This document shows positions 11,401 to 59,286 of a DNA stretch of 64,000 nucleotides, one piece after another. The notes under the pieces were generated by a model. It saw nothing but the letters and a program-made list of their open reading frames with translations, searched no databases and was not told the DNA's origin. The stretch's first letter is position 1; each line of letters begins with the position of its first letter. The DNA is from an uncultured Candidatus Saccharibacteria bacterium. GTDB lineage: Bacteria > Patescibacteriota > Minisyncoccia > Phycocordibacterales > PALSA-1337. Where the stretch lies: contig CAZLCD010000001.1 in assembly GCA_964558375.1 (NCBI GenBank), forward strand, positions 209,160 through 273,159, in the 5' to 3' direction. The position numbers were made by a program, and so were the translations under genes.

Positions 11401-12011
11401 CAGCCCCAGTATCTAGCTTTATTTTTAATGGTAATGATTTGTATTTCTATGGAGGTACCACTATAAGTAGGATCAGAAATATTTTAATTGGAGAGATTAC
11501 AAATACTCCATCCATCTCTCTACCTGTAACAAACCCAGATCTTTTAAATACAGAAGATAGCCTTCCTGTAAACGCCTCCTGCTCCACCCGTCTAAACAGA
11601 TGCTCAACTGGTTCAGTCTCCGGTAGAACCTCCAACACTACTCATAACTTATGGACTTGTAATGGACTCAATGGTGGAACTAATGCTTCTTGCTCTATAT
11701 TAAAAACAGCACAAGATCCAGTAAATCCTATAGTCCCTGTAGATCCTTTACCTCTCCAAGCTCCTTTAACCCCAACCTACACTCCAGCATACACACCAAC
11801 TCATACTCCAACTACATACGTATACAAGAAACCAGCAACCCCTGCACCCAAAGTTATATCTCCCACCCCAGACCTCCCACCCTCCCCATCCTTCGAACCT
11901 CTAGACTTTATACCCACCGACTATATTCAGATATTACTCGACTTGATCAAACAATTCTTCATTGATCTTGTGGAGAGGATTAAGAGGGGAGTAGATAGAA
12001 TAATTGGATAG
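8451..12011 (+). CDS. secreted multi-domain protein: signal/TM, LamG (Laminin_G_3-like) lectin domain, FN3 domain, beta-propeller-like core, 4-Cys module, conserved C-terminal tail domain
   Basis: N-terminal hydrophobic segment, then 'LVGHWTFDEGSGTTAGDSSG..NGTL' through 'IDDTRIYDRALSAVEISELYNQG' (LamG). 'APSIPANLVATSVSATQNNLSWDAS..GVTGYKVYRG' is FN3. 'CSTRLNRCSTGSVSGRTSNTTHNLWTCNGLNGGTNASCS' is the Cys module. The C-terminus reads '...PDLPPSPSFEPLDFIPTDYIQILLDLIKQFFIDLVERIKRGVDRIIG'. Confidence 0.85.
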   Translation: MINHQVKSSYAIAIISILFFCALFVVNFARKEIAKINFVAYIPEARTLLAQAGGSLSDGLVGHWTFDEGSGTTAGDSSGAGNNGTLVNFPSDGSGWVDGYFGKALKFNGTNTYVNLPKILANKTQFTISMRARFDGATDFQGALMGHSNGGFYIRKAGSCNSIITWVVNSLSTNVGASLNGSPSSGIACDSWQMHTFTMQTNGTFSYYIDGEFIKSATHPSWDSFNASHDNRIGQYAGSGYVWNGLIDDTRIYDRALSAVEISELYNQGTPNEVVEVSTADREAPSIPANLVATSVSATQNNLSWDASTDNVGVTGYKVYRGTTDIGNTTNPTFQDTNVPSDNSSVYTTSIYTVLAYDAQNNRSNKSASASATFQSANTENPANVAQNLNGLTLGTNLRIDNLGAPLKGNTQEHQVMYKTNDGHRHLQMYYDTFGASPIDVVDIDLENAKVVKSSLERNVGRVGTRCHVFYPANNKMYIGSSDPGSFSEFDPTTGATKYISAVKYKGAYHCEIGDDGWIYIGQITAGVVKGAGLERYNPTTGVWQDLGVIDPAFNGALQYAYTLGADNRYVYISLGQLPWYLAVYDTQATSNKIKIYFKENGDTNSNISKGADGKWYYTKYHLGETPYKRMYKFENGIPVEVSSTPVLDQWYQQSNVISDKSAFKQVFNTEVNFDKANSNSENGGTVEISWKTDSGSWQSATVNGLSQVARTIKRLYPWPGREDKFLGWASEYGLVFLYDASSKDIQSLGYPTRSLYDAVFVGPIIYISGYTAITMKYDPSKPWTLSASTLDPKSTSVNPYIFYGQYGKYHYYSTLGSDGMLYIATHHERGSVGGEIAWYNLSSGASASLREPFLDYDVSDLKSALNGTKIVYSSSKDKLFIFDVATKRIEREITPIPGNMEIDKIFETEPGIIFGIYDTKYFKANIQTGEIIYIKDLGGRAFPGIPAYDRRLVKGPDGYAWLFIDDKLSRINPVDGTIQKIMTAPVSSFIFNGNDLYFYGGTTISRIRNILIGEITNTPSISLPVTNPDLLNTEDSLPVNASCSTRLNRCSTGSVSGRTSNTTHNLWTCNGLNGGTNASCSILKTAQDPVNPIVPVDPLPLQAPLTPTYTPAYTPTHTPTTYVYKKPATPAPKVISPTPDLPPSPSFEPLDFIPTDYIQILLDLIKQFFIDLVERIKRGVDRIIG

Positions 12012-15000: not shown

Positions 15001-17562
15001 GAATATTGTAATACTTTTTCTGATTATACAGTGGCGGGAGGTTACGAACCATCTTTTGGTGATGCCGCAGATACTATCTATGAAAAACGCCAGCTAAATC
15101 CAGGATTGGTTTCCCAAATTAAAAATATGTGGAGATTCTGTAGGAATCCCAAAGCCGCTTGGTTGCTTGTTAATGTGGTCGGAAGAACTGATCAAAGTAA
15201 TACTGAATGGTCTTCTGCTCAGTCGGCAGCTAATAATGTTCGTGATCCTAGAATTTCTTCTAATTCAAGAACATTAAATGGTCTAGGTCTAGGTATATTA
15301 GAGAGTGGCGTTAGTTCAAATGACTATAGAGATAAACGAGCGGTAATGGTTAGAACCGGTAGTGGTTATGGGCATGAACACCACGATGCTCTAGACCTTA
15401 GCTGGTTCGCTCTTGGACTTCGAATGGGAACTGATTATGGACAGAGGAATGAAGGAAACTTATATACCGTACCCAATGATGAAGCTTCGAATACTCACAA
15501 TGTCCTAGAGGTTGATGGTTTAAAGCATCCATTGAGAGCGACTGATGGTTGGCCATCAGGAAGTTTCTCTGCTTCAGATGCGTGGATATCAGTTTTTGCC
15601 CCAGAAAATGGAGCTCAATATATCTCTGCTCAATCAAAATCAGCTGACCATACCAATGTTAATATTTTCAGGCGAGATACTTCACTTATAGATATAGACG
15701 ATAAGAACTCCTATGTATTCGATGTCTTTAGAGTTGGTGGTGGACAAATGCACACATGGTCTTTCCATGGAGCTGATACATCAGGAGAATCTGGCGGTCT
15801 ACAAGTTAATGTGCCTATGAACTCGACTCTAGATAGTGATGCTAGTCAGTATCTTAGAAAACATGCAGAGGGTACTAGAACACAGGGTGTGGCAACTAAT
15901 AAAATTGAAGCAACATGGAGATTAGGTAGGACTTCAAATACTGCAAATCTTAACAATGCTGATGGTGCATCACTCTCAGTTACAACTGTCGCTGCAGAGC
16001 AAAGTATGCTGGGTTCTGATTACAATGCTTCCTCCCCAAGAAAATATACCAAGACTACTTTATTCGACAGATCGGGTGATAAAGTCATGATGGGTAATCT
16101 GTATTCTGCATACTACAAAATTAATGAACCAAATCTTTTTGTACAATCAGGAACTGGTGGTAGTTATAACTCTGGAAGTAATAAGCAAGATGTATATCCT
16201 GCTATAATTGAAGCTTACGCTGGTTCATCTCTTATCTCCGCTAGTCAATCACTTTCTGTTACTCCGAATGAATCTGATGCTCTAAAAGCTGTTGCGCTTT
16301 CAGTCACTACTACAAATGGTAATAATGATATATTGTTTTCAGATGGAAGAAATACAACTCGTACGATCGGAGGGGGTACTATGACCGCCAATGCGCAATT
16401 TGGTTACTATTCATCAAATGCTGGAAATATGAGAATGATGACTATTGTTGGTGGTACAAATCTAACAAAAGGAAATTATTCTCTAAAACCATCCGTTGCA
16501 GTAAATTCCTCTACTATCCAAAGTGTTAATTATCGTGATCGTAAGATATATACATCTTCAAAATTTCCAAAAACTCTTATCAATCGCGACTTTCATATAA
16601 AAAATACTGATCACGAAACTTCATACAAAATAATCAATATTGTTGACTCTGGCTCTGGTAGTATACTTACCTTCGAAAAACCTGCAGATATCGGGGTTCT
16701 TAAGATTGATGGCCTGTCAGGTAACACCATTACATCCTCAGATAGTTGGATTTTAGACTATACACCTAACAGAAATAGGGGATTAACCGGTACAAATGAA
16801 TCTGGTTCTAAAGTTTTTAAGATTAAAAAGACGGCAAGTAATGGCGGAAGTTCAAATACAATTTCTGGAGCATCTGTTTCTCAAGCTGATTTTACTGATA
16901 TTGATGGAGATGGAATCTCTCAGGTACTTGTATATGATTTTGGCATAGGCGATACAATAGAGGTTGCATCCGCCTCAACTTTAAAAAGAGTAAATAACAA
17001 TGATATATATCAACTAACAAGTAACACACCTCTGTCTGTAACTTTACCTGGTACTGGAAGCTTGGAAATTAGTTCAAATTCTTCTAGTTGGACAAAGATT
17101 AACAGTACCTTATCTACAAATTCAGTAACAGCGAACATTACTGAATCACAACTACTATCAGGTATCAAATATGTTAGAGCTTCATCAAACCCTGGTATTA
17201 ATCTTACATTAGAAGAGTTGAAAAAATTAGAGGACCAAGCTCTTCTTAATGTACCTCTTAATCCACTTACCCCATTACCTAACCCAGATCCTTTTCCTCT
17301 CTCCCCGCTAAATCCTACTACTCCAACCTACACTCCCGCATATACACCAACCCATACTCCAACACCCTATACCTACAAGAAACCAGTAACTCAAGCACCC
17401 AAGGTTATCTCTCCAACCCCAGACCTCCCACCCTCCCCATCCTTCGAACCTCTAGACTTCATACCCACCGACTATATACAGATATTACTCGACCTTATTA
17501 AACAATTCTTCATCGATCTTATAGAAAGGATTAAGAGGGGAGTAGATAGGATAATTGGATAG
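12040..17562 (+). CDS. secreted multi-domain protein: signal peptide, LamG domain, InlB-B-repeat-like Cys domain, large alpha/beta core (possibly heparinase II/III-like polysaccharide lyase; weak call), conserved C-terminal tail domain
   Basis: 'MNRFLKIILLVTITVSSVSS' is the signal peptide and LamG ends '...LDDVRVYNRALSADEIIQLYNQS'. 'SGSGNGSISGTGISCGTDCSEVVNSGTQVTLTASPANSSSIFSGWSGGGCSGTGNCVVTVSSDKTVTATF' fits the divergent InlB B-repeat pattern. 'YGHEHHDALDLSWFALGL' recalls heparinase II/III motifs with low confidence. The C-terminal tail is identical in type to that of 8451..12011. Confidence 0.85.
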   Translation: MNRFLKIILLVTITVSSVSSINISTASASLTDGLVAHYTFDDNTNDSAGTNNGTASGGPSYVEGKVGKALQFDGTNDYITLSNTSAADMTTNNFTVSLWLKTNTTATTQYRLISKRGSDGYEIYLGSGQNGLAAYCDTTGGGCLNDNNLGTASVRDMKWHHAVVVFDRSGNMTGYVDGNVGSSPSNISAAVGSMTVAQNLMIGQYSNGGGDYFNGTLDDVRVYNRALSADEIIQLYNQSSDSTPDIPVEEVPDDTPTDPTSTPTQYNLSVLMSGSGNGSISGTGISCGTDCSEVVNSGTQVTLTASPANSSSIFSGWSGGGCSGTGNCVVTVSSDKTVTATFTTQPLVIDGKNTVTQSMFYTKNGLYNGYVRDNTGFHPFVADSFPGHYIKAADLKGISQASIIPLDQTYYGDNLGNQVNGYPASEAAVKLSVGGDSISLDLVNIEYGVYVIRLVGRVNQPTIPRIRKPLYVHLKINDGPNGEVNDYRMRVLYSNNLEETGRIFFNALKPNNNLHAELFVGPGSQEDLLIHRIDFFDALADIQKKAVKTSATTYTAEEKSSAQTQGKKLIGLGTRSSDCGFFGIDYCGDNIFWQWFNGGYTTTPAVSSAETRRQRDDIIWNALPPLNAMTAGIDGTYNAYDKWPNGMTTAEVVEQYGKWELDPIVTNQQYIYQYYDRPWKIVNKKLNLEYTLEDYKAHKPLPDPYPFKDDGSGVYFPASTHDSPGTYQFIIAPLILQRIQGQYSTSFFDPAGGPGLNLPYRYFLTNDEKVARDTALALVRFSSQWPAFQFEAQDLAYNSALPELVFNGAWRWTNARIGKVVGIKEDEIQGYLYAYDYLFDYIKNNQELADAVHRYIPWVQTPDDIIELIDTHFVKSLKNDISNKRVIFTKPLLIDLVLQDTAIEQTESPMDISKIINFIHPLTTSLKNHYSNSFTQNGTMFIGSSFYVIGESSAFINMLDPMTRYKDSTGKSIPYDLTNLDLFPKVREYCNTFSDYTVAGGYEPSFGDAADTIYEKRQLNPGLVSQIKNMWRFCRNPKAAWLLVNVVGRTDQSNTEWSSAQSAANNVRDPRISSNSRTLNGLGLGILESGVSSNDYRDKRAVMVRTGSGYGHEHHDALDLSWFALGLRMGTDYGQRNEGNLYTVPNDEASNTHNVLEVDGLKHPLRATDGWPSGSFSASDAWISVFAPENGAQYISAQSKSADHTNVNIFRRDTSLIDIDDKNSYVFDVFRVGGGQMHTWSFHGADTSGESGGLQVNVPMNSTLDSDASQYLRKHAEGTRTQGVATNKIEATWRLGRTSNTANLNNADGASLSVTTVAAEQSMLGSDYNASSPRKYTKTTLFDRSGDKVMMGNLYSAYYKINEPNLFVQSGTGGSYNSGSNKQDVYPAIIEAYAGSSLISASQSLSVTPNESDALKAVALSVTTTNGNNDILFSDGRNTTRTIGGGTMTANAQFGYYSSNAGNMRMMTIVGGTNLTKGNYSLKPSVAVNSSTIQSVNYRDRKIYTSSKFPKTLINRDFHIKNTDHETSYKIINIVDSGSGSILTFEKPADIGVLKIDGLSGNTITSSDSWILDYTPNRNRGLTGTNESGSKVFKIKKTASNGGSSNTISGASVSQADFTDIDGDGISQVLVYDFGIGDTIEVASASTLKRVNNNDIYQLTSNTPLSVTLPGTGSLEISSNSSSWTKINSTLSTNSVTANITESQLLSGIKYVRASSNPGINLTLEELKKLEDQALLNVPLNPLTPLPNPDPFPLSPLNPTTPTYTPAYTPTHTPTPYTYKKPVTQAPKVISPTPDLPPSPSFEPLDFIPTDYIQILLDLIKQFFIDLIERIKRGVDRIIG

Positions 17563-19768: not shown

Positions 19769-22762
19769 ATGAATAGATTTTTTAAATTAATTTTATTTCT
19801 CACTATAATTATCTCAGTATCTCTTTCTACCAACATACCTAACGTATCCGCTAGTCTCACAGATGGACTAGTATCACACTATACTTTCGATGAAGGAAGC
19901 GGAACCACTGCAGGGGATTCTGCTGGGTCGAATGCAGGGACACTTACAAATGGACCGACTTGGGCTACGGGGAAAGTGGGAAGTGGGGCACTACAGTTTG
20001 ATGGAACGGATGATTTTGTAAAGTTAACTTCTCGCATTACATCCCCAGGTACTTTTTCTATGAGTCTATGGTTCTATCCAAAAACGGTATCTTATGCTGG
20101 AGGAGTTTTGATCGGTGGTTTAAATGCAAATTCTCAGATCACTGCAGGTCCTATTGTTACAGTAAGAGACAATGGTGCAGCGGCAACTGATGTAGCTATA
20201 TTAAAACCACTTTTTGCCAATAAATGGCAACATCTAGCTGTGACCCGTGGTGCGAGTAATGCTATTTTAATTTATCTAAATGGAGAAAATGTAACCACAG
20301 GCACTCCGACTTTTTCTATCACAAAATATTGGGATTATATCGGTAGTCGCTCTGATGGTCTATATCCTTTCTCTGGTTCCCTCGACGACATCCGCATCTA
20401 CAGTCGTGTTCTAGATTCTAATGAAATAGAAGAATTAAATGATATGGGTGCAGTTGTAGCTTCTGGGGACACGGAAGCACCTTCCATACCCTCTGGTCTC
20501 ACAGCTTCTCCCACATCACAATCAAAAATCAATCTATCTTGGACTGCATCTACAGATAACACTGCCGTAACAGGATACAAGATATACAGAGGTGGTTCAG
20601 AAATAGCTACCACACCAAATACTTCCTATGAAGATACAGGACTATCTCCTAGTATTCCATACACCTACACAGTACTAGCCTATGATGCTATAGGTAATCA
20701 AAGTGAAAAATCCTCTCCTACCTCTGCAACTATACAATCAGATACTCCTGTCGCAGATACACCTCCACCGGCTGACAATACAGTATGGTACGTCTCACCT
20801 ACAGGAACATCAGCTGGAACTGGTTCCATTACTAGTCCTTGGGATCTACAGACAGCTTTTACTAATACAGGTAAGAAGATAAAACCGGGACATACTGTAT
20901 GGATGCGGGGAGGGGTTTATGGGCTCGGAGGAAATACAGTTTTTGGTCATCGATGGGATGGGTTGAGTGGAACAAGTGGTAATCAAATTACTTTTAGAAA
21001 TTATGCAAATGAGCGAGCTATTATAAATGGATCTATCGCTGGAAGTGGAAATTACCTTACTTTCTTTGGATTTGAAATAATGAATTCAAATCCTGTGCGT
21101 AAGATCAGTACTTTTGATAAGCCAGGAGGGATAAATATAGGTGGTAAGGGTAACAGAGTGATCAATCTGGTTATACATGATGTAGGACATTCACCAATTG
21201 GAGGAATATCCGAAGGAGAAATTTACGGAGTAATAATGTGGGGTAGCGGTATATACGATACAAGCAATCCATTATATCCAAATGGTCTAGCCCGAGGATC
21301 TGGTATGTACCTCCAGAATCGTAATGGAAACTCTTATGTTTCCGATTCAATTTCTTTTAAGCAATTTACGACTGGAATGAAAGCCTATGCACAAGAAGGA
21401 CATGTTAATGGATTTAAATTTGAAGGCAATGTAGTGTTCGATAACAATGATATAAACCTTGAAACTATCGCAATTACAAATCCAGCTAAGGATATTTCCT
21501 GGATAGAAAATTACACTTACACAGATCCTCTTGATATTAAAAAGCCAGCACAGCTAGGATGGGTTTCAAACGATATGATAGATGCAATAGTCAAAGATAA
21601 TTATTTTGTAAATGGAAGTAATCCTAAAGGAGCACTCTTTGTTCATAAATGGAAAGATTTAAATGTGACCGGTAATACTTTTATCTCTCAACGACAAGCT
21701 GCTAACGTTCCAGTATTGTCTTTCGATATGCCTGACACCACGACTTCACATACCTGGAACTCCAACAAATATTACGGAGGCAATTCATCTTCTCTATTTT
21801 TCCTCGACAATGTTGCTAAGACCTTCGATCAATGGAAATCCACCACCGGCTTCGACTCCAACAGCACCTACTCATCATCTCTACCTAGTACCAATGCCAT
21901 TTTCGTAAGACCAAACAAATACGAACAAGGAAGAGCACATGTCATTGTCTATAACTGGGAAAACAAAAACCAAGTAAATGTAAACATTTCAAATATAGGA
22001 CTTCAAACAGGAGACAACTTTGCTATATTCGATGTACAGAACTTCCTAGGAGAACCAGTAATGAGAGGAGTGTATAATGGTCAGTCAGTAGATCTTCCTA
22101 TGAACCTCACCACCATCACTCCTCTCATCGGTAGACAAAACATTACACATTTCAATCCAAACACTCATACAGACAAGAAATTCAATGTCTTTGTTGTCTT
22201 AAAGACCAATGGAGTCTATTCTCAACAGAACTATGTGATCCCTCCACCTCCAGCAAACCTTCCTCCACCCACAGTAGAGATACCCAATCTACCAATTGAC
22301 TTACTAGTGAATGGATCTTGTTCTACACGGTTGAATAGATGCTCAAACGGCACAGTATCTGGTAGAACCTCCAACACTACCCACAATCTCTGGACTTGTA
22401 ATGGTTTAAATGGAGGTACCAACGCTTCTTGCTCTACCTTAAAGACAGTAGAAGATCCTGTAAATCCTATAGCACCTGCAGATCCTTTACCGACTCCTCC
22501 TTCTGCACTAAACCCCCTAACCCCAACCTACACTCCAGCATACACCCCAGCACACACTCCAACACCCTATACCTACAAGAAACCAACCACTTCCACACCC
22601 AAACCAATAGCAGGAACCCCTGATCTCCCACCCTCCCCGTCCTTCGAACCTCTAGACTTCATACCCACCGACTATATACAGATATTACTCGACCTAATTA
22701 AACAATTCTTCATTAATCTTATGGAGAGGATTAAGAGAGGGGTGGAGAGGATAATTGGATAA
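19769..22762 (+). CDS. secreted multi-domain protein: signal peptide, LamG, FN3, parallel beta-helix-like core (pectate-lyase-fold candidate), 4-Cys module, conserved C-terminal tail domain
   Basis: 'MNRFFKLILFLTIIISVSLS' is the signal peptide and LamG ends 'LDDIRIYSRVLDSNEIEELNDMG'. 'APSIPSGLTASPTSQSKINLSWTAS..AVTGYKIYRG' is FN3. Repetitive 'G..N..I..' turns are consistent with a beta-helix. The Cys module is 'CSTRLNRCSNGTVSGRTSNTTHNLWTCNGLNGGTNASCS'. The tail reads '...PDLPPSPSFEPLDFIPTDYIQILLDLIKQFFINLMERIKRGVERIIG'. Confidence 0.85.
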   Translation: MNRFFKLILFLTIIISVSLSTNIPNVSASLTDGLVSHYTFDEGSGTTAGDSAGSNAGTLTNGPTWATGKVGSGALQFDGTDDFVKLTSRITSPGTFSMSLWFYPKTVSYAGGVLIGGLNANSQITAGPIVTVRDNGAAATDVAILKPLFANKWQHLAVTRGASNAILIYLNGENVTTGTPTFSITKYWDYIGSRSDGLYPFSGSLDDIRIYSRVLDSNEIEELNDMGAVVASGDTEAPSIPSGLTASPTSQSKINLSWTASTDNTAVTGYKIYRGGSEIATTPNTSYEDTGLSPSIPYTYTVLAYDAIGNQSEKSSPTSATIQSDTPVADTPPPADNTVWYVSPTGTSAGTGSITSPWDLQTAFTNTGKKIKPGHTVWMRGGVYGLGGNTVFGHRWDGLSGTSGNQITFRNYANERAIINGSIAGSGNYLTFFGFEIMNSNPVRKISTFDKPGGINIGGKGNRVINLVIHDVGHSPIGGISEGEIYGVIMWGSGIYDTSNPLYPNGLARGSGMYLQNRNGNSYVSDSISFKQFTTGMKAYAQEGHVNGFKFEGNVVFDNNDINLETIAITNPAKDISWIENYTYTDPLDIKKPAQLGWVSNDMIDAIVKDNYFVNGSNPKGALFVHKWKDLNVTGNTFISQRQAANVPVLSFDMPDTTTSHTWNSNKYYGGNSSSLFFLDNVAKTFDQWKSTTGFDSNSTYSSSLPSTNAIFVRPNKYEQGRAHVIVYNWENKNQVNVNISNIGLQTGDNFAIFDVQNFLGEPVMRGVYNGQSVDLPMNLTTITPLIGRQNITHFNPNTHTDKKFNVFVVLKTNGVYSQQNYVIPPPPANLPPPTVEIPNLPIDLLVNGSCSTRLNRCSNGTVSGRTSNTTHNLWTCNGLNGGTNASCSTLKTVEDPVNPIAPADPLPTPPSALNPLTPTYTPAYTPAHTPTPYTYKKPTTSTPKPIAGTPDLPPSPSFEPLDFIPTDYIQILLDLIKQFFINLMERIKRGVERIIG

Positions 22763-43530: not shown

Positions 43531-44076
43531 ATGAAAAATAACATTATGAATGAAACAGAACCATTGTATATAAAGAAATTACGAGAACATATAGACTATA
43601 AGATAGAGACTCAGGAACCTAAGTATTTTAAGGAGTTTAGAGAGAGCTTAGAAACACATGAGCCAAAGTACTTCAAAGAGTTTAGAGAAAGCTTAGAAAC
43701 ACATGAGCCAAAGTACTTCAAAGAGTTTAGAGAGCACATAGACCATAAGATAGAAACTCATGAACCTAAGTATTTTAAGGAGTTCAAGAAAGAGATAAAG
43801 GATCATATAGATAACAAGATCGATGAAGTTTTAGTATCTACTGCGGGAGAATTTAGAAGAATTGATGAAAAATTTGATAAAATTGATACCGAGTTTGAGG
43901 GAGTTAATAACAGACTAGATAGACTAGAATCTGACGTGGTGGAAGTTAAAGAAAGTATAGGTAAAATAGAAGGTCATATAGGTAGATATGAAGTCAGGGC
44001 TCAAAATATAGAAGCAATTTTATTGGAAGATCATAAACCAAGAATAATCCAGTTGGAAAAAGAAGTTTTTGCCTAA
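43531..44076 (+). CDS. hypothetical coiled-coil protein with four tandem 15-aa repeats ('HEPKYFKEFRESLET')
   Basis: A 45-nt perfect tandem DNA repeat at about 43634-43723, with a heptad-like C-terminus. Confidence 0.6.
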   Translation: MKNNIMNETEPLYIKKLREHIDYKIETQEPKYFKEFRESLETHEPKYFKEFRESLETHEPKYFKEFREHIDHKIETHEPKYFKEFKKEIKDHIDNKIDEVLVSTAGEFRRIDEKFDKIDTEFEGVNNRLDRLESDVVEVKESIGKIEGHIGRYEVRAQNIEAILLEDHKPRIIQLEKEVFA

Positions 44077-50757: not shown

Positions 50758-52974
50758 ATGTATCTCAAATCTTTAGAGATTTATGGTTTTAAATCTTTTG
50801 CAAAAAAGGCAACGCTTAACTTTACTTCCCCTATCTCCGCTATTGTCGGACCAAATGGTTCTGGTAAGTCCAATGTGGCTGAAAGCTTCCGCTTCGTGCT
50901 TGGTGAACAATCGATAAAGTCGATGCGAGGTAAAAGGGGTGAGGATCTGATCTTTAATGGTGGAGGCGAGGGTGCAAGGGTGAATCGTGCTGGAGTCAAA
51001 GTTATTTTTGACAATAGCAAACGTGTTTTGAATGTGGACTTCGATGAGGTGGCCCTTGAGCGTGTCGTGCATAGAGATAATTCCAATGAATATTTTATCA
51101 ATGGTTCTTCTGTGCGCTTGAAGGATATTGTAGAGCTTTTGGCACATGCGCATATCGGTGCTTCTGGTCATCATATCATCTCTCAAGGTGAAGCGGATCG
51201 GATTCTCAATGCCAATATTCGAGAACGTCGGGAAATGATCGAAGATGCTTTGGGTCTCAAGATTTATCAATATAAAAAAGCTGAAAGCCAAAGAAAGCTT
51301 GAGAAAACAGAGGAGAATATGAAAAGTGTCGAATCCCTAAGAAGAGAGATCGCACCTCATTTAAAATTCCTAAAGAAACAAGTAGAGAAGGTTGAGAAGA
51401 CACAACAATTGCGAGAAGAATTGAGAAAGTTGTGCAAAGAATATTTTAAAAGAGAAGAAATTTATTTAAAAAGTGAAAAGCATAAAATTCTAGAAGAAAA
51501 AAATCCTTTAGAAAAAGAATTGATTCAGCTCGACGGAGAAATTCTACAAGCTAAAGAGATCCTAGAACAAAGCAAAAACCGCGATGCCAGAAGTGATGAA
51601 CTCATAGCCCTTGAAAGTAGTCTTCGACAAATTCGAATTCAGAAAGATAATGTAATGCGTGAGCTTGGTAAAATAGAGGGAGAGATCTATGCTGGAGAGA
51701 GAATGATAGTTAAAGAAAAAGAGAAACAAAAGCAGGATGAATTTAAGACTGTATATCTTAAGGACATCGAGGATATTTTTAAAAAGGTTAATATACTAGA
51801 AAGTATAAATGAAATAAGAAATCTTCTTTCTAATTTTATTTCAATTCACAAAAACAAAGAAAACTCTGCTCTGGTAGCTGAAACAGAGAGAGATATCCAT
51901 GATCTTAAAAAAAGTAAAGAGGAATTGGAGCACTCACTTAGAGGATTTGATGAAAAAGAGAAAATAGGCAATCTGGAATACAATCAGTTTCGTGAGAGAA
52001 TTGAAAAGGAAAAAGATTCAAACAGAGATGCTGAAAAAAATCTTTTTAGGATTATTGCTAGACAAAATGAAATCAGAGGAATGTTTGGTAATGTTAAAAG
52101 TCGTGAAGATAGAATAATTCTCGAAGAACAATCTTTCAAAAGATTACTAAATGAAGCCTATATTATTGTCGGAAGAGAAATCACTGAATATGAGAGTCTC
52201 GTTATAACTGATTTTTCTGAAGATCGGGCACTTCAATATGAAAGACAGAAAAATATTGAGAAAATCAAGATTAGAATAGAAGATTCTGGGGCGGGCAATA
52301 GTATTGATATTCTTAAAGAGCATAAAGAAGTAGAAGATCGAGATGCTTTCTTGGTTAAAGAGCTTGCGGATCTAGAGATTTCCAACAAGAGTCTGCGGGA
52401 CCTTATCGCCGAGCTCGATGCAAGGATCGATATAGAATTTAAAGAGGGAATTCTAAAGATCAATGCGCAGTTTCAGAATTATTTTGCTCTAATGTTTGGT
52501 GGAGGCAATGCTAGCCTCAATGTCATTCGCGAAAAAAGAAGAAAAAAGAAAAGTGATACGGACTTAAACTTCAATGAAGAGGCGACTTTGGAAATATTAG
52601 CTGAAGAAGAAGACGGTGAAGAGGGTATAGAAATAAATGTCAGCCTTCCTCGAAAAAAAGTGAAAGGTCTTATGATGCTTTCTGGTGGAGAAAGGGCGCT
52701 GACCTCCATTGCCCTTCTTTTTGCTATTTCTCAGGTCAATCCACCTCCATTTATTATTCTTGATGAAACCGATGCGGCCTTGGACGAAGCCAATTCTCGC
52801 AAATACGGCGACATGATAGCCAATCTTGCACAATATTCTCAACTTATTTTGATAACTCACAATCGTGAGACTATGTCGCGTGCGGGTGTTCTATATGGCG
52901 TGACTATGGGTAATGATGGGGCGTCTAGACTCCTCTCTATTCAACTCGAAGAAGCTGTGCAAATTGCCAAATAA
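50758..52974 (+). CDS. smc: SMC-like chromosome segregation ATPase, unusually short (738 aa) with no recognisable hinge
   Basis: 'MYLKSLEIYGFKSFAKKATLNFTSPISAIVGPNGSGKSN' is the Walker A. The C-terminal region has 'LSGGERALTSIALLFAI' and 'FIILDETDAALD'. The rnc-smc synteny is conserved. Confidence 0.8.
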   Translation: MYLKSLEIYGFKSFAKKATLNFTSPISAIVGPNGSGKSNVAESFRFVLGEQSIKSMRGKRGEDLIFNGGGEGARVNRAGVKVIFDNSKRVLNVDFDEVALERVVHRDNSNEYFINGSSVRLKDIVELLAHAHIGASGHHIISQGEADRILNANIRERREMIEDALGLKIYQYKKAESQRKLEKTEENMKSVESLRREIAPHLKFLKKQVEKVEKTQQLREELRKLCKEYFKREEIYLKSEKHKILEEKNPLEKELIQLDGEILQAKEILEQSKNRDARSDELIALESSLRQIRIQKDNVMRELGKIEGEIYAGERMIVKEKEKQKQDEFKTVYLKDIEDIFKKVNILESINEIRNLLSNFISIHKNKENSALVAETERDIHDLKKSKEELEHSLRGFDEKEKIGNLEYNQFRERIEKEKDSNRDAEKNLFRIIARQNEIRGMFGNVKSREDRIILEEQSFKRLLNEAYIIVGREITEYESLVITDFSEDRALQYERQKNIEKIKIRIEDSGAGNSIDILKEHKEVEDRDAFLVKELADLEISNKSLRDLIAELDARIDIEFKEGILKINAQFQNYFALMFGGGNASLNVIREKRRKKKSDTDLNFNEEATLEILAEEEDGEEGIEINVSLPRKKVKGLMMLSGGERALTSIALLFAISQVNPPPFIILDETDAALDEANSRKYGDMIANLAQYSQLILITHNRETMSRAGVLYGVTMGNDGASRLLSIQLEEAVQIAK

Positions 52975-53013: not shown

Positions 53014-56000
53014 ATGAATAATTTGATAAAAACGTCTCATGCATTTATCATCATAATTTCTCTTTTTCTTGCAAGCTTAAATATTATATTTTGGTCTTCG
53101 GAACAATTGAGTATTGTTGCTAAAAATATTCCCATAGAATCCATAAAACAAACCGCGGCGGTGGGGGATTTTGATTCTAGTAAAATTCATCATGAGACTT
53201 TCGATAGTGGAGGATCGACTGGTATAGTAGGGCAAGCTAAGGTATTTGCTTCACTTACAGATAAAGTAAACACTCCAATAAATACCTCTACTCTTACCGG
53301 TGGCTTCACTATTTCTTTTTGGGCGAATCCTACAGCTCTAGCTTTTAATAAGTTTGCATATTCTGCAAGTGATCAGGGCGCAGACCGATTTTATTTTAGA
53401 CAAGATACAGGAACTAGTGCTGTAGCTGGACTCGGTAGTTGGAATCCCGCTATCAGTTCTGCTTTTTCTACAGATAAGTGGACTCACTATGTCATTACTT
53501 TAGATGGCACTACAGGTAAGATTTACAAAAATAATTCAGTCGTAGCTTCCAATTCAAATATTACCGTCGCTCTACCAAACTCTGTTATTGCTATAGGTGC
53601 AAGTAAAGATTCCACAGCAAATACTTTTTTCACAGGTTCTTTAGATGATTTCCGTATCTACAATCGAGCTCTTACTGTAACTGAAATAGATGATCTATAT
53701 ATACTTGGTGGAGGTGCAGTTGCAGAAGTAGATACCACCCCTCCCTCTGTACCTGCAAATGTTACAGCTACAGCAATTTCTTCATCTCGGATAGATCTTT
53801 CATGGTCTGCATCTACCGGTGGAGCCACAGGGTATCGTGTCTATAAAGATGGAAGTCAGATAACTACAACTGCTAATACCTCATATTCCAATACAGGACT
53901 TACTCCAGCTACTTCGTATTCATATACAGTCGCTTCATATGATGACGATTCAAATGTATCAGCTCAAAGCTCTTCTGTTTCTGCAAGCACACCTGCTGGG
54001 TCTGGTTCACCGATAGATGGACAATGTTCAACAACTTTAAATACATGCACAACCCCAACCCCCGCAACAAACATAAGAGCAGACGCTAATAATAATCTTT
54101 GGACTTGTCCTGGAACAAATAATGGCAATCCAGCATCTTGTTCATCACCTATTACAACTGGTGGCAGACAGCCTACAGTTTCTGGTAACGAGGTAACTGC
54201 ATATTCTTGCGAACAGGTAGATGTGCAGGCGGCTTTGAATATCGCTCAGACAGGGAATATTGTAAATATTCCAGCTGGAACATGTACTTGGACAAGTACT
54301 TTTAATTTCAATAAAGCAGTTACTCTAAAGGGGGCAGGGGTAGATCAAACAACGCTTATAAATGGTGTATCACACACTGGAATTTCTAGTTGTGGTGGAT
54401 GTACAAGACCACAGATTATTATCATGAGTTCAAGTAATTCTGGGTTAACTAGAATTACAAATATGACTATCGATGGTGGTTCGGGAACTATAGATGGACA
54501 AAATAATGGTTTTTTTCTAGTCTACGGAAGTTCTAAAAATTGGAGAATAGATCATATGCGTTTTCGCGTGACTCGTACTTCTGCTATAACCGCGTATGCT
54601 CCGGGCGGTCTCATAGACAATAATCGTTTTGATATTATTGGCTGGTATGTGAGTATCTATGGTAAAAATGGAGGAGGAGAAAATGGTGATCCTGTATGGG
54701 CTCAGGATACTGAACTCGGTACAGATAATGCCTTATATATAGAAGATAATACATTCTATTCTTCCACGCCAAGTCTCGGTCTTGATGGATGGATGGGACA
54801 ACGTGTAGTTGTAAGGTTTAATAATTTTAATAATTCCCGAGCAGGTAATCATGGAACAGAGAGCGGTAATCGTCTACGAGGTTCTAGGAGTTACGAAATA
54901 TATAATAATACTTTCAACAAAACTAATGGTGATAATTATAGCGATGCTGTAGGTATTCGTGGTGGTGTAGGGGTCGTATTTAATAATACCTTGTCAGGAT
55001 CTTTTACAATGGTTGGTTCTATGCACAACTATCGTGATCTACACCCATATTCACCTTGGGGTCAATGTGATGGAACGAGTCCTTTCGATTTAAATGATCT
55101 AGAAGATGATAATTCTACCCTAAGAGTTTATGATACAGGGACTTCTGATACAAATTCAGTATATTCTAATAATAATATTACACTTACAGATTCAGATAAA
55201 TCATGGACTGCTGGTCAATGGATTGGTTATAGTATTTGGAATACAACAAAAAATCTAAAAAGTCCCATAACATCCAATACAGCCACAACGATAACTAGTC
55301 CCACAGATAACAACAATAATAGCGCGCCATTATCTTGGAGTAATGGTGATAGTTTCAAAATAATACGCGCATCTATGTGTATTGATCAAGTCGGTAGAGG
55401 TAAGGGAGTTTTGATTTCTGGTGGACAAAGTAATCCAACCCCAAGAGCTTGGACACAACAAGAATTAGATCCAACATATATCTGGAATAATACTTTAAAT
55501 GGATCTTATCGTGCTATAGGTGATACATCGGTTCATATTGTAGAAGGTAGAGATTATTATAATAACACTTGTAAGCCCGGGTATAGTCCATACACGTATC
55601 CCCACCCCCTTACAGGACTCTCACCTCAAACTGTACCCTTGAATTGTAATGGTGGTACACCAGCGCAAACCTATAATCTCTCTGTTTCAAAACAGGGAAC
55701 TGGTTCAGGTACTGTGTCTGGAGGTTCTATTTCTTGCGGAAGTATTTGTTCAATGACAGGTTCCGGAAATATCTTACTCCTAGCTACTCCAAGCAACGGC
55801 TCAGCATTTACTGGTTGGTCAGGCGCTTGTACTGGTTCTAGTAGTATTTGTTCAGTATCTCTTTCTTCTAACCAAACTGTTACTGCAACCTTTGGTCCAG
55901 GAACTCTAGTCGGCACCCCCGCTCAATGTTCCACCACTCTAAACTCCTGTTCAACTGGTACCTTAAGATCTGGTAGTCAAAGTAGCAATTCTACCCACAA

Positions 56001-56898
56001 CCTCTGGACCTGTGATGGTCTAAATGGAGGAGCTCAAGCTTCTTGTTCTGTTCTTAAAACACTTCCTCCTACACCTGGTCAATGTTCTACTACCCTAAAC
56101 CTTTGTACTTCTGGAAATCCAGAAGGTATAACTGCCAACACTACTCATAATATATGGACTTGTGGTGGTACAAACGGTGGTGAAGCTATCTCTTGCTCAA
56201 AACTCATATCCAACATAGACCTAACTCCAACCACCAACTTGGTTACGGTAAACAAAACAGGATCAGGATCAGGTACGGTTACGGGTACAGGTATCTCTTG
56301 TGGATCTGACTGTACTCATGTATTACCTATAAACACCGCTATTACCCTCACAGCTACTCCAAACAGTGGTTATGTGTTCAGTAGTTGGTCTGGAGGATAT
56401 TGTTCTGGTAGTAATAATACTTGTACTATTACTCCTACTACAGACGCTACTGTTATAGCAAGGTTTAGTATTATTCCTACCGCAATAAATGGTCTATGTT
56501 CCACTACTCTAAACTCTTGTACTACTGGTAGATTTTCTGAAAGATCAGATAACACGACTCACTCTCTCTGGTCATGCCAAGGTACAAATGGAGGAACTAA
56601 TGTAGATTGTTCTAGTGTAAAACCTGCGGTACCACCTCCTGTTTATAATCCTCCAGTTCAACCTGTAAACTATACTCCTACTCCTTATGTCTATAAGAAA
56701 CCAGTAACTACTCCAAAGTTAATTCAACCAACCCCAGATCTCCCACCCTCCCCATCCTTCGAACCTCTAGACTTCATACCCACCGACTATATAAAGATAT
56801 TGCTCAATCTTACCAAAGATTTGGTTCTTAATTTTGTACAGAGAATTACAAGAGGTGCTCAGAAAGTGATAGAGGAGATAAAAATGCTAAGTAGCTAA
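53014..56898 (+). CDS. giant secreted multi-domain protein of the LamG family: signal, LamG, FN3, Cys module, beta-helix-like core, InlB-B-repeat, Cys module x2, InlB-B-repeat, Cys module, diverged family C-terminal tail
   Basis: LamG ends 'LDDFRIYNRALTVTEIDDLYILG'. FN3 is 'PPSVPANVTATAISSSRIDLSWSAS..ATGYRVYKDG'. There are four 'CSTTLN.C...(8-12)..TH.[LI]W[TS]C.G.NGG....C[S]' modules and two 'GSG.V.G..ISCGS.C...........L.ATP..G..F..WSG.C.........VTA.F' modules. The tail is '...YVYKKP...PDLPPSPSFEPLDFIPTDYIKILLNL...'. Confidence 0.85.
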   Translation: MNNLIKTSHAFIIIISLFLASLNIIFWSSEQLSIVAKNIPIESIKQTAAVGDFDSSKIHHETFDSGGSTGIVGQAKVFASLTDKVNTPINTSTLTGGFTISFWANPTALAFNKFAYSASDQGADRFYFRQDTGTSAVAGLGSWNPAISSAFSTDKWTHYVITLDGTTGKIYKNNSVVASNSNITVALPNSVIAIGASKDSTANTFFTGSLDDFRIYNRALTVTEIDDLYILGGGAVAEVDTTPPSVPANVTATAISSSRIDLSWSASTGGATGYRVYKDGSQITTTANTSYSNTGLTPATSYSYTVASYDDDSNVSAQSSSVSASTPAGSGSPIDGQCSTTLNTCTTPTPATNIRADANNNLWTCPGTNNGNPASCSSPITTGGRQPTVSGNEVTAYSCEQVDVQAALNIAQTGNIVNIPAGTCTWTSTFNFNKAVTLKGAGVDQTTLINGVSHTGISSCGGCTRPQIIIMSSSNSGLTRITNMTIDGGSGTIDGQNNGFFLVYGSSKNWRIDHMRFRVTRTSAITAYAPGGLIDNNRFDIIGWYVSIYGKNGGGENGDPVWAQDTELGTDNALYIEDNTFYSSTPSLGLDGWMGQRVVVRFNNFNNSRAGNHGTESGNRLRGSRSYEIYNNTFNKTNGDNYSDAVGIRGGVGVVFNNTLSGSFTMVGSMHNYRDLHPYSPWGQCDGTSPFDLNDLEDDNSTLRVYDTGTSDTNSVYSNNNITLTDSDKSWTAGQWIGYSIWNTTKNLKSPITSNTATTITSPTDNNNNSAPLSWSNGDSFKIIRASMCIDQVGRGKGVLISGGQSNPTPRAWTQQELDPTYIWNNTLNGSYRAIGDTSVHIVEGRDYYNNTCKPGYSPYTYPHPLTGLSPQTVPLNCNGGTPAQTYNLSVSKQGTGSGTVSGGSISCGSICSMTGSGNILLLATPSNGSAFTGWSGACTGSSSICSVSLSSNQTVTATFGPGTLVGTPAQCSTTLNSCSTGTLRSGSQSSNSTHNLWTCDGLNGGAQASCSVLKTLPPTPGQCSTTLNLCTSGNPEGITANTTHNIWTCGGTNGGEAISCSKLISNIDLTPTTNLVTVNKTGSGSGTVTGTGISCGSDCTHVLPINTAITLTATPNSGYVFSSWSGGYCSGSNNTCTITPTTDATVIARFSIIPTAINGLCSTTLNSCTTGRFSERSDNTTHSLWSCQGTNGGTNVDCSSVKPAVPPPVYNPPVQPVNYTPTPYVYKKPVTTPKLIQPTPDLPPSPSFEPLDFIPTDYIKILLNLTKDLVLNFVQRITRGAQKVIEEIKMLSS

Positions 56899-56908
56899 GT
56901 CAGGAAAT

Positions 56909-58858
56909 TTAGGCTGGTAAGAAATCCAAAGTTTTCTTATCTAGATCCGCCGCAGCAACCTTGAAGCGTATGCTATCGCCCAGAGTAAACCTCTTTCCAC
57001 TTTTCTGACCAAAGATAGAATATGTTTTCTTATCGAATTCATAAAAGTCATTGCCTATATCTCGTATTTTGATCATACCTTCGGACTTGGTTTCTTTTTC
57101 TTCAATATACAGACCCCATTCAGTGACACCAGAGATAGTTCCATCGAAAGCTTGGCCGATTTTGTCGGACATGTATTCTACTTGTTTTAATTTCTTTGAT
57201 TCTCTTTCTGCACCAGCAGCATCTATCTCTCGAGCCGTGCTTTTCTCTGCAATGTTTTGAAATTCTACAATTTCTTTATCACCAAAAGGTTCATGATTGA
57301 GATGTCTCTGCAAAATCCTTTGTATTAGAAGATCAGGATAACGACGTATCGGGGAAGTAAAATGCGTATAATATTCGAAGGCCAAACCAAAGTGCCCAAT
57401 GTTCTTGGTCGAATACACGGCCTTTTGCATTGAACGTATCACCGCTGTGCTAACAAGCGCTTCATGAGGAGTTCCTTCAATTTGTTTCAATAGATTCTTG
57501 ATATCAAAAGCAGTTACTTTACCATCCTTAGTATGAAGATTGTAACCCAAAGCTTTGACGAAAATCGAAAGATCCATCATACGTTCTTGGTCCGGCATAT
57601 CATGGATGCGGTATATAGAGCCCGTATCCCTTTTGCCTTTTTCTTTTATAGCATCGAAAATATGCTTGGCTACTTCGCGATTGGCAAGAAGCATGTATTC
57701 TTCTACAAGCTTATGTGTATCGAGCCTAGCTTTTTTGTAAACTCCTATTGGCTTACCATTTTCATCAAGTTTAAATTTAATTTCTTCTTGTTCAAACTCT
57801 ATAGCCCCTTGCTTAAATTTCTCTTGCTGCAAAACCTTAGCTATCTGATTTAATTTATTTAATTCGCCGAAGTACTGACCCTGTTTAGCATTGAGAACCT
57901 CTTGCGCATCTTCATAGGTGAAGCGATGAGTAGAATTGATAATGGTCTTGCCGAAGCCACGCTCAGTAATCTCTGCTCTATCGTTCATTGTAAACCAAGC
58001 AGAGAAGGTGAGCTTGTCTTCATGGGGGTTTAGACTACATACATCGTTCGAAAGCACTTCAGGAAGCATGGGTATGGTTCGGTCAACCAAGTATACAGAG
58101 CAACCTCTTTTGAAAGCTTCGACATCAAGAGCTGAATCTTCTTTTACATAATGAGAAACATCAGCTATATGCACACCAATCTCGTATTTTCCATTTCCCA
58201 AATCTTTAAATGAAATCGCATCATCAAAGTCTTTTGCATCGAAAGGGTCTATGGTGAAAGTAAGTGTATCTCGGAAATCTCTACGTTTAGGAATTTCTGC
58301 TTCAATATCTCTTATCTTATTAATTTCTATTTCTGTAGCTTCTTTTTCTACTTCGGTAGGGAAGCCGATCTCAAATCCTTTTTCGAGAACGATAGATTCC
58401 ATCTCTACGTTATTGTTACCTTTTTTACCTAAGATTTTTAATATTGTGCCCTCTGGATTTTGTTTTGGATCTGTCCATTCTTTCATTTTGACATAAACCT
58501 TGTCTCCTATAGAAACTGTGGCTATATCGGCTTGAGAGAGGCGAATAGAAGCATAAGCTTTCTTATCATCTGGATAGGCTGTGAGCACTCCCTCTCTGCT
58601 ATCTATAGTACAGACAAAAGAATCTCGCTTTCGCTCTATCACACGCACCACTTCGGCTGTCTGTTGCTTGTATGAATTGATTTTACCAAGCTTTATCTCC
58701 ACAGTATCACCATTCAGTGCCGTGTTCAGTGAACCTACATCGATCATGATATCGCTTTCCAGGTTTTCTGGATTCTTCATAAAACCCATACCCTTTCGAT
58801 TGGTGATAATAATACCTTGCAAGTTTTCAGTTTTTTTCATTAAATTACTATAACTCAT
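56909..58858 (-). CDS. rnr: ribonuclease R. The start is trimmed to Met 'MSYSNLMKK'; the track ORF extends to 59035, antisense through rpsP.
   Basis: RNB-domain motifs include 'DPFDAKDFDDAISF' and 'IYRIHDMPDQERMMDL'. There is a C-terminal S1-like region. The upstream 59 codons of the track ORF overlap the rpsP coding strand and look spurious. Confidence 0.85.
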   Translation of the reverse strand: MSYSNLMKKTENLQGIIITNRKGMGFMKNPENLESDIMIDVGSLNTALNGDTVEIKLGKINSYKQQTAEVVRVIERKRDSFVCTIDSREGVLTAYPDDKKAYASIRLSQADIATVSIGDKVYVKMKEWTDPKQNPEGTILKILGKKGNNNVEMESIVLEKGFEIGFPTEVEKEATEIEINKIRDIEAEIPKRRDFRDTLTFTIDPFDAKDFDDAISFKDLGNGKYEIGVHIADVSHYVKEDSALDVEAFKRGCSVYLVDRTIPMLPEVLSNDVCSLNPHEDKLTFSAWFTMNDRAEITERGFGKTIINSTHRFTYEDAQEVLNAKQGQYFGELNKLNQIAKVLQQEKFKQGAIEFEQEEIKFKLDENGKPIGVYKKARLDTHKLVEEYMLLANREVAKHIFDAIKEKGKRDTGSIYRIHDMPDQERMMDLSIFVKALGYNLHTKDGKVTAFDIKNLLKQIEGTPHEALVSTAVIRSMQKAVYSTKNIGHFGLAFEYYTHFTSPIRRYPDLLIQRILQRHLNHEPFGDKEIVEFQNIAEKSTAREIDAAGAERESKKLKQVEYMSDKIGQAFDGTISGVTEWGLYIEEKETKSEGMIKIRDIGNDFYEFDKKTYSIFGQKSGKRFTLGDSIRFKVAAADLDKKTLDFLPA

Positions 58859-58908
58859 ATTGCCTTTTTTTAACAGTTCTGATAGAGTATGAATCTCAAT
58901 ATATACAT

Positions 58909-59286
58909 ATGTTAATGATACGACTACAAAGAGTAGGAAGAAAACACGAACCGGTATTTCGTCTGGTTTTGACTGATTCCAAGAATGGCCCAAAAAGTGG
59001 CAAGTATCTAGAGGTTCTCGGTTCTTATGATCCAAGACTGGACAATAAGGCTGAACAGTTCAATCTTCCTGAAATCAAAAAACATATGGCTAATGGCGCA
59101 AAGCTCTCTGACACTGTGCATAACTTCCTTGTTTCAAGAAAGGTTATAGAAGGTAAGAAGAGAAATGCTTTACCAAAGAAGACTGCGACAAAGAAAGAAG
59201 TGGTAGCCGAAGCTCCAGCAGCAACTCCTGTTGCCGCTCCTGCAGTAGCTCCAGAAGCAGCCGCTTCAACTCCCTCAGCTGTGTAA
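58909..59286 (+). CDS. rpsP: 30S ribosomal protein S16 with an Ala/Pro-rich C-terminal extension
   Basis: 'MIRLQRVGRKHEPVFRLVLTDSKNGPKSGKYLEVLGSYDPR' matches S16. Confidence 0.9.
   Translation: MLMIRLQRVGRKHEPVFRLVLTDSKNGPKSGKYLEVLGSYDPRLDNKAEQFNLPEIKKHMANGAKLSDTVHNFLVSRKVIEGKKRNALPKKTATKKEVVAEAPAATPVAAPAVAPEAAASTPSAV

Follow-up and report, generated by a model that had tools for sequence, protein, structure and literature searches.

Large surface proteins encoded by consecutive genes have been described in Apilactobacillus kunkeei, in which the tandem giant genes Giant1-5 share a positively charged C-terminal attachment domain and undergo frequent short intragenic recombination (PMC12863079). 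Exported proteins that are held in the plane of a membrane by a C-terminal amphipathic helix are also established, examples being PBP5/DacA of E. coli (PMC2909392) and Erns of pestiviruses (PMC4536213). Patescibacteria live attached to other microbes, and it is poorly understood how they hold large lectin-like or enzyme-like proteins, seemingly without classical anchoring systems. Here we describe gene F, at positions 53014-56898 of a 64,000-nucleotide stretch of contig CAZLCD010000001.1 from an uncultured Candidatus Saccharibacteria bacterium (this whole stretch is referred to as the window, and all coordinates are those of the window). Gene F encodes a large modular cell-surface protein whose C-terminal tail is shared with the products of genes B, C and E of a separate array, A-E.

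The F protein is an ordinary kind of surface protein for the candidate phyla radiation (CPR), with an unannotated tail. The reading that we favour, and consider probable though by no means secure, is that F is a Sec-exported, carbohydrate-binding or carbohydrate-degrading modular surface protein and a mosaic, that its gene was inserted between smc and rnr, that the motif DNA of its tail was overwritten by gene conversion, and that the tail would act in envelope retention or docking. The original prediction had instead taken an invariant signature within the tail for the functional recognition element. This was not borne out, since conversion explains the invariance and, in the one comparison available between lineages, it is the helix that is conserved.

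Results

A putative gene-conversion tract in the tail of gene F

The tails of B, C, E and F have in common a YxYKKP linker, an identical PDLPPSPSFEPLDFIPTDY and an amphipathic helix with RIxRG. As can be seen on aligning the four tails, the signature is the same in all of them and the helix is altered in F alone, where about half of it is substituted and it is seven residues longer than the array helices. A profile of the tail scores F at 124 bits, compared with 137-138 bits for B and C. The features of the four tails are as follows.

56611..56727, + strand: Pro/Thr/Tyr-rich linker of F with YVYKKP, residues 1200-1238 (from the sequence; non-regular and of low predicted local distance difference test (pLDDT) score in the AlphaFold2 model)
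56728..56801, + strand: putative gene-conversion block of F, 74 nt, encoding PTPDLPPSPSFEPLDFIPTDYIKIL; the signature proper lies at 56734-56790
56782..56892, + strand: C-terminal amphipathic alpha-helix of F, residues 1257-1293 (AlphaFold2 model residues 103-139, pLDDT 80-88)
11862..12008, + strand: tail of array gene B (block equivalent 11862-11935, then helix)
17413..17559, + strand: tail of array gene C (block 17413-17486, then helix), the closest copy to the F block
22613..22759, + strand: tail of array gene E (block 22613-22686, then helix)

Genes F and C differ at 2/74 bases within the block, compared with 33/73 in the next 73 bases, which encode the helix (Fisher p = 2e-10), and 22 of the 23 codons in the signature are identical between them. 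In the LamG-FN3 region, which serves as background, residues that F shares with B, C or E are encoded by identical codons at a rate of only 0.33-0.37, indicating that synonymous sites are saturated between the paralogues; with p = 0.35, binomial arithmetic gives P ~1e-9 for 22/23 identical codons. The longest exact match between F and the array is 54 nt long (56740-56793, corresponding to 17425-17478 in gene C), the next longest outside the tail being 16 nt, and the 54-nt signature DNA pattern occurs four times in the window where 0 occurrences are expected by chance. The F block falls inside the diversity of the array (8/74 differences between B and E), and the F helix DNA lies far outside it, with 30-33/73 differences compared with 8-10/73 among the array copies.

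Codon usage points to the source of the block. Codons ending in C number 11 of 24, compared with 4.4 expected. The corresponding fraction (C3) is 0.05 in the F linker, which is written in a T-ending style, 0.10 in the F helix and 0.21-0.28 in the array tails, so that the style of the block matches the array tails and not the F flanks, as expected of an array-type donor. Since only 4/9 codons are identical at conserved residues of the helix, its synonymous sites are as diverged as elsewhere, and the F helix is anciently diverged from 56802 onward. Its differences from the array helices are thus old and not the product of rapid rewriting.

Both borders of the block are sharp. One, at ~56727/56728, lies inside the interval 56690-56760 in which the original prediction proposed to look for recombination breakpoints, and a second is found at ~56801/56802. 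The block is thus a segment of near-zero synonymous divergence flanked on both sides by saturated divergence, the pattern by which gene conversion is recognized, and on its simplest reading it is a short and recent conversion tract whose donor was an array-type tail. That the motif is perfectly invariant thus reflects concerted evolution through conversion of its DNA. Since conversion gives the same pattern with or without constraint on the peptide, the invariance is no evidence of protein-level constraint. When B, C and E are compared with one another, conservation of the block does not significantly exceed that of the helix DNA (p = 0.13-0.62).

Three other explanations of the pattern were rejected. 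An RNA element in the block is not indicated by the fold (z = 0.23) or by any Rfam match. Mutagenesis of the helix by a diversity-generating retroelement would be adenine-specific, and the F-array differences comprise all base types. Positive selection on the F helix after a recent duplication is at odds with its diverged synonymous sites (the same 4/9 codons).

Signature and helix in other genomes

When 1.84 billion representative proteins were searched exhaustively with HMMER, the tail signature was found only in B, C and F of one genome. With the tail profile as query, a word-indexed search of 5.8 billion proteins gave no match; as it missed even the window's own proteins, it is unreliable for such short queries. 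Scans of the JGI metagenomes and IMG/VR with the back-translated signature returned no relatives, and a search combining the Cys module described below with the tail returned only Cys-module proteins without tails. Two proteins of other CPR-like contigs that are related to F in their central core, P0003 and P0004, were the sole source of further tails in a regular-expression and hidden Markov model (HMM) scan of 3143 C-termini from 165 loci. Their tail reads ...SGPFVPLPExTPEDI...ATIxDIxSYxxxRIxRGxxRVxGR, and a scan of IMG/VR with its back-translated motif found no relatives.

When the window and P0003/P0004 tail profiles were compared by hhalign, only 25 columns aligned, all in the helix (probability 91.8%, E 7e-7). 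Consistent with this, an HMM built from the helix only had P0004 (E 3.4e-5) and P0003 (E 0.016) as its best non-self matches among the 3143 C-termini, whereas an HMM of the signature only matched nothing outside the window (best E 6.2). What is conserved with this lineage is the helix end, RIxRGxxRxxG, and not the signature. A conserved signature followed by a variable helix, the pattern for which the original prediction proposed to test other genomes, is observed within the P0003/P0004 pair and within a third set of tails, those of locus L082, which carry their own genome-specific motif, VPLAxLDLNxSSWxWLF. Between lineages the pattern is reversed: in the sole comparison available, it is the helix rather than the signature that is conserved, the outcome that the original prediction had itself named as counting against it. 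In each of the three lineages (window, P0003/P0004 and L082) a loose core can be recognized, hydrophobic-x-P-L and then an acidic residue. Both motif and helix would thus appear to be under some constraint, and the signature is not singled out.

Structure and possible function of the tail

AlphaFold2 predicts a single helix in the F tail, from T1257 to S1293, and the motif and Pro-rich linker are non-regular. Hydrophobicity was expressed as KD19, the Kyte-Doolittle mean over 19 residues, taken as the maximum per segment. The F helix has a hydrophobic moment of 0.78, a mean hydrophobicity of about -0.2 and a KD19 maximum of 0.89; over the four window tails the moment is 0.77-0.81, the mean hydrophobicity ~0 and KD19 0.89-1.15. 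Since these KD19 values stay at or below 1.15, compared with 2.29 for the N-terminal anchor of F, the tail helix is not a transmembrane segment. Read by eye, the heptad a and d positions are hydrophobic all along the B, C and E helix, and the tail end of the helix carries basic residues. A known C-terminal sorting domain was rejected as the identity of the tail: NCBIfam gave no sorting-domain match with full proteins at E <=0.01 or with isolated tails at E <=10, and no Pfam family matches the tails even at E <=10.

An exported protein with three PKD-like repeats (39091-40353, + strand) ends in a hydrophobic stretch, VVVLVIMLLVATIIYLVI, plus NKNKI, which indicates that membrane anchors of the ordinary C-terminal kind are in use in this genome too, in contrast to the amphipathic tails of B, C, E and F.

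Two arguments bear on the function of the tail. Hydrophobic N-termini are found in F, B, C, D and E, and judged by sequence those of C, D and E are classical AxA-type signal peptides. Mature C and E would therefore be released unless something retains them, and the tail is the only candidate for retention. The second argument is one of position, since in homologues the place of the tail is taken by sorting or docking modules. One Bacteroidota-like homologue of the F core terminates in a Por_Secre_tail of the type IX secretion system (T9SS; E 2.2e-16), and related FN3 proteins of Saccharibacteria found in the same search end in Dockerin_1. Other Paceibacteria giants, such as P0110 and the 955-aa protein of L164, also finish in a helix, but one of unrelated sequence.

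Taken together, the results show gene F to be a lineage-specific insertion at a smc-rnr junction that is otherwise tight or variable. In its tail, a disordered Pro-rich linker leads through a motif of 19 aa to a single long amphipathic helix with basic residues at its end. The motif DNA at 56728-56801 was recently overwritten by a short tract from an array-type tail, and linker and helix have stayed anciently diverged. As to function, the tail is most likely an envelope-retention or docking module. As such a module, common to B, C, E and F, it may span the wall with its linker, and its helix may serve as an in-plane anchor on the outer leaflet of the membrane or form a bundle, either with a partner or with itself. 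The divergent helix of F might then confer a different partner or affinity from that of B, C and E.

Several points weigh against this reading. The motif may also be functionally constrained, the 74-nt conversion tract notwithstanding. In the paralogous L082 tails, the shared VPLAxLDLNxSSWxWLF is encoded with synonymous differences and the last ~20 residues diverge; in P0003 compared with P0004, substitutions counted by hand number 1/15 in the motif and 9/24 in the helix. Cross-lineage statements rest on one independent outside lineage, P0003/P0004, that is, on n = 1. Acidic and basic residues are about equal in number in the B, C and E helices, a charge pattern that is less typical of membrane binding and fits a coiled coil equally well. 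The central core of F is only weakly assigned to the beta-helix fold, no match being better than E 0.016 or TM 0.33, and no co-occurring partner points to a function of the tail.

Some of these points would suit an alternative in which a dedicated sorting or processing machinery, sortase-like or exosortase-like, recognizes the signature PDLPPSPSFEPLDFIPTDY and the helix is a generic, freely varying retention segment. The L082 tails, which keep their motif through synonymous differences as their distal ends diverge, the 1/15 and 9/24 substitutions in P0003 and P0004, and the recurrence of the hydrophobic-x-P-L and acidic core in three lineages are all as it would predict, and the three-part layout of Pro-rich linker, motif and helix with a basic end is that of a sorting signal. 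However, within the window the conversion tract accounts for the invariance; it is the helix-only profile that reaches an outside tail, the signature-only profile reaching none, and hhalign aligns the helix only; and the signature is confined to one genome among the 1.84 billion representatives searched. In addition, no NCBIfam or Pfam sorting domain was matched by the tails even at E <=10, the helix is amphipathic and not membrane-spanning as in known sorting signals, and no sortase-like gene was found among the scanned genes of the 64-kb window. We regard this alternative as unlikely.

A bolder form of the docking proposal is improbable. It holds that the tail is a previously undescribed Patescibacteria module for envelope targeting or docking in which the sequence of the helix specifies the partner, as a dockerin-like code, and in which conversion keeps the hinge DNA uniform. 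On this view a short hinge motif (hydrophobic-x-P-L) would connect a Pro-rich stalk to an amphipathic helix of ~35 aa whose end is basic. One helix code would be common to B, C and E and another would belong to F, short conversion tracts keeping the hinge DNA uniform in each genome. If this were so, genome-specific tails such as those of the window, P0003/P0004 and L082 would mark the host-facing surface proteins of each CPR cell.

The opposite possibility, that the tail has no targeting role and is an ancestral remnant, a linker with a capping or stabilizing helix homogenized in the array by concerted evolution, we judge to be less probable again. The exact tail is confined to one genome, array members A and D are without it, and unrelated terminal helices end P0110 and the L164 protein, all of which would fit a remnant. 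Yet the tail has been kept on four proteins with unrelated cores, its RIxRGxxRxxG helix end is conserved in another lineage with diverged flanks, and it occupies the position of the sorting and docking modules of homologues.

In pilin antigenic variation, conserved segments flank minicassettes. That the 74-nt DNA is itself functional in such a manner, as a short homology anchor for swapping tails or upstream modules among surface-protein genes, could draw on the block being the only long exact F-array match, on its sharp borders, on its unusual C-ending codons (11/24) and on a family visibly built by module shuffling, but it is very unlikely, since there is no sign of cassette exchange across the block (the F flanks are old on both sides), no recombinase, repeat or inverted-repeat signature occurs near it, B, C and E do not conserve it significantly more than their helix DNA, and ordinary RecA-mediated conversion explains the data.

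We conclude that the tail, proposed here to act in retention or docking, may represent a new module of anchoring or docking, a candidate of modest interest. As an unannotated tail on four otherwise unrelated surface proteins it is a candidate anchor or docking signal, and could be used to list the proteins that are displayed. A lesson of wider use is that identity of a motif among paralogues within a genome can come from gene conversion, so that synonymous sites should be checked before constraint is inferred.

Mosaic composition of gene F

The ORF (open reading frame), LamG and FN3 domains, four Cys modules and two InlB-B repeats that had been recognized in F from its sequence are all present, as judged by the ORF list, Pfam and regular expressions. 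A protein identical to F, P0001, is present in a public protein collection, where it is encoded on an NCBI contig of 330 kb. Upstream of the tail, gene F is organized as follows.

53014..56898, + strand: gene F, large modular cell-surface protein (ATG start, 1294 aa; ORF list and translation)
53014..53097, + strand: predicted hydrophobic export signal or signal-anchor, residues 1-28 (KD19 maximum 2.29 at AFIIIISLFLASLNIIFWS)
53257..53688, + strand: LamG / concanavalin-A-like lectin domain, Laminin_G_3, residues 82-225 (Pfam PF13385, E 1.3e-21)
53749..53958, + strand: fibronectin type III domain, fn3, residues 246-315 (Pfam PF00041, E 1e-8)
54025..54141, + strand: Cys module 1, residues 338-376 (regular expression; blastp 44% identity to the B and E modules)
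54154..55668, + strand: central core, residues ~381-885, ending ...PGYSPYTYPHPL (from its model, probably a right-handed parallel beta-helix)
55663..55893, + strand: InlB B-repeat-like domain 1, residues ~884-960 (Pfam PF18998; blastp 48% identity to the repeat of C)
55927..56196, + strand: Cys modules 2 and 3, residues 972-1011 and 1024-1061 (regular expression; blastp 60-66% identity to the B and E modules)
56245..56475, + strand: InlB B-repeat-like domain 2, residues 1078-1154 (best PF18998 stretch)
56497..56610, + strand: Cys module 4, residues 1162-1199 (regular expression)

The two InlB-B stretches match Flg_new_2, the 'divergent InlB B-repeat' (Pfam PF18998, E 2e-15). With the expression C-x6-C-x(n)-W-x-C-x(n)-C, four Cys modules were found in F and one each in B and E. 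The ~38-aa module (NGxC...C..G...W.C.G.NGGTNA.C), found in the window at 54025-54141, 55927-56196 and 56497-56610 in F and at 11580-11693 and 22319-22432, has no Pfam match. Small proteins from unrelated metagenomes (P0123-P0128) also contain it, and it would seem to be a disulfide-rich mini-domain that has not been catalogued.

The array A-E spans 588-22762. Gene E ends at 22762, which places F 30.25 kb away, in agreement with the displacement of about 30 kb noted originally, and the genes in between include tgt, pfkB, fba, rplY, prfB-like, rpsB, tsf, pheS, gyrB, thrS, dnaE, rnhB, nusB and rnc. Laminin_G_3 (PF13385) is common to F, B, C, D and E according to Pfam. Matches of F to A-E in blastp are limited to LamG/FN3 (28-34% identity), the Cys modules (44-66%), the InlB-B repeats, which match C, and the tail, and nothing in A-E matches F residues 381-885. 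The membership of F in the array family thus rests on shared accessory modules, namely LamG, FN3, the Cys module, the InlB-B repeat and the tail.

In its core, F is 70% identical to P0003 and P0004 and 53% identical to P0002, all of which are encoded on other CPR-like contigs. In P0003 and P0004, the F-type core is joined to a different N-terminal module, CBM_4_9, and the protein family is visibly assembled by module shuffling. Since the core is related to proteins of other genomes and unlike the cores of A-E, F is not a duplicate of an array gene; it is a mosaic, in which a core orthologous to those of other genomes is combined with accessory modules that resemble the local array. Of the proposed dispersal from the main array, what remains is the 74-nt patch, which is array-derived; F as a whole is no array copy.

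Searches of Pfam and of PDB sequences with the core (residues ~381-885) gave no match. From a four-sequence alignment, AlphaFold2 modelled it as a regular run of short strands (pLDDT 57.6, predicted template modelling score 0.61), and in a Foldseek search of the PDB with this model all of the top 50 matches were right-handed parallel beta-helices (best E 0.016, TM <=0.33, at the model pLDDT of 57.6), including PL6 lyases, polygalacturonases, pectin methylesterases, RbmB, PfbA and tailspikes. A beta-helix fold for the F core is therefore plausible and not established. The idea that F shares a beta-helix grammar with the array holds for the modules; its core is unlike the centres of A-E in blastp, and its fold comes from a low-confidence model only.

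Relatives of the core in metagenomes number 254, confirmed by tblastn and mostly on high-GC non-CPR contigs. The 80 of these that were examined for orthologous tails (L084-L163) are mostly distant high-GC non-CPR proteins; most stop soon after PYTYPHPL or carry a T9SS C-terminal domain, and no tail was gained from them. In L089 the core is fused to a T9SS sorting domain. The core, ending ...PGY(T/S)PYTYPHPL, is a widespread extracellular module without a Pfam model or PDB sequence relative.

Within the array, ORF A (1-8432, + strand) is open at the left end of the window and thus longer than 2614 aa. It has 14 LVIVD repeats and a Peptidase_S74 intramolecular-chaperone domain, as in phage tailspikes, at residues 2245-2291 (~nt 7320-7460), followed by a Lys/Glu-rich acidic end without the shared tail. 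The LamG-coding DNA of C and D (12229-12528 and 17834-18133) is 96% identical across 300 nt, which is another sign of recent conversion or duplication within the array.

The junction between smc and rnr

The location of F between smc and rnr was confirmed by matches of its neighbours to TIGR02168 and TIGR02063.

50758..52974, + strand: smc, upstream neighbour, 738 aa (TIGR02168, E 1.9e-152)
56909..59035, - strand: rnr (RNase R), convergent downstream neighbour (TIGR02063, E 3.2e-205)

The gap between smc and F is 39 bp and contains a TGnTATAAT-like element, and the F stop codon lies 10 bp from rnr. A mobile-element footprint around F was rejected, the gaps being 39 and 10 bp with no flanking repeats. 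The SMC protein is 74-79% identical to proteins of metagenome-assembled genomes labelled Candidatus Taylorbacteria, Paceibacteria or Patescibacteria, which places the bacterium of the window among the CPR, close to these groups. In 31/80 related loci, rnr on the opposite strand and rpsP follow smc within 3.5 kb. None of these 31 loci with both genes near has an F-like gene at the junction, indicating that F was inserted in its own lineage, at a site where the clade is variable. Across L002-L081 the gap between smc and rnr ranges from 0 to 3.5 kb, with unrelated small accessory genes, and is below 50 bp in seven loci (L003, L004, L013, L014, L020, L023 and L041). Gap contents read by eye include a HEPN/nucleotidyltransferase-like pair (L006), ORF6N-like genes (L012, L015 and L052) and a DUF559-like gene (L049).

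Such surface-protein genes commonly sit between housekeeping genes. In L082, the tgt|pfkB junction is occupied by P0002 and the pfkB|fba junction by another giant with a tail, although both junctions are tight in the window (25171|25229 and 26227|26244), and P0067 lies at argS|ileS (ArgRS|IleRS) in L165. The two giant tail-bearing surface genes of L082, at tgt|pfkB and pfkB|fba, occupy its positions 2616-12100.

The SMC protein, at 738 aa, is short relative to NCBIfam SMC models (~1170-1180 positions); all 80 relatives align over the same short length, and the shortened SMC seems to be a feature of the clade. The listed TTG start of rnr overlaps rpsP (58909-59286, + strand) by 127 bp, and many relatives' rnr alignments begin only at about residue 51-80. 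Taken together, these two observations suggest that the true rnr start is probably an internal ATG (~residue 59, MSYSNL...).

Other features of the window

Three further ORFs were recorded. At 29182-30048 (+ strand), a type IV pilin-like N-terminal methylation motif is fused to a LamG domain, so that the product looks like a modular pilin with the same lectin-type module as the array proteins. A 181-aa ORF at 43531-44076 (+ strand) contains four tandem 45-nt repeats encoding (E/K)THEPKYFKEFRESL and a coiled-coil-like C-terminus, and has no Pfam family. In the 299-aa ORF at 49117-50016 (+ strand), a NusB domain is fused to a NUDIX hydrolase domain.

Comparison with known systems

With PBP5 and Erns, F-type proteins share export by an N-terminal signal and a helix at the very C-terminus that combines a high moment with too little hydrophobicity to span a membrane. 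In contrast to these proteins, the F-type helix is longer (~37 aa), its acidic residues equal its basic ones in number, and it is preceded by a long Pro-rich linker and a motif; in sequence the F-type tails are not similar to them.

The order of Pro-rich wall-spanning region, short motif, helix and basic residues is that of LPXTG/sortase and x-CTERM signals, as is the occurrence of one signal on many unrelated surface proteins of one genome. Unlike LPXTG and the x-CTERM signals (PEP-CTERM, IPTL-CTERM and GlyGly-CTERM), the tail has a helix that is not hydrophobic (KD19 <=1.15) and no LPXTG or PEP motif, it has no NCBIfam match at E <=10, and the genes scanned in the window include no cognate sorting enzyme. 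Dockerins of cellulosomal and CPR surface enzymes resemble the tail in being small C-terminal modules on several carbohydrate-active or carbohydrate-binding proteins of one genome. The tail differs from them in having no Ca-binding repeat and a single helix rather than a dockerin fold, and no cohesin-like partner was identified.

In its modelled core, F may resemble right-handed beta-helix lyases, glycosidases, tailspikes and adhesins (PL6, polygalacturonase, RbmB and PfbA), the fold class to which all of its top 50 Foldseek matches belong. Unlike the beta-helix enzymes, the core has no Pfam or PDB sequence match, and no catalytic residues were identified. As a whole, the locus may be set beside Giant1-5 of A. 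kunkeei, with which it shares consecutive large extracellular protein genes, beta-solenoid cores (a modelled fold in the case of F), a common C-terminal end for which attachment to the envelope is proposed, and short recombination tracts by which diversity is shaped. The A. kunkeei proteins belong to a different phylum and are much larger, and their C-terminal module is an SH3b-like beta domain, whereas here it is a helix.

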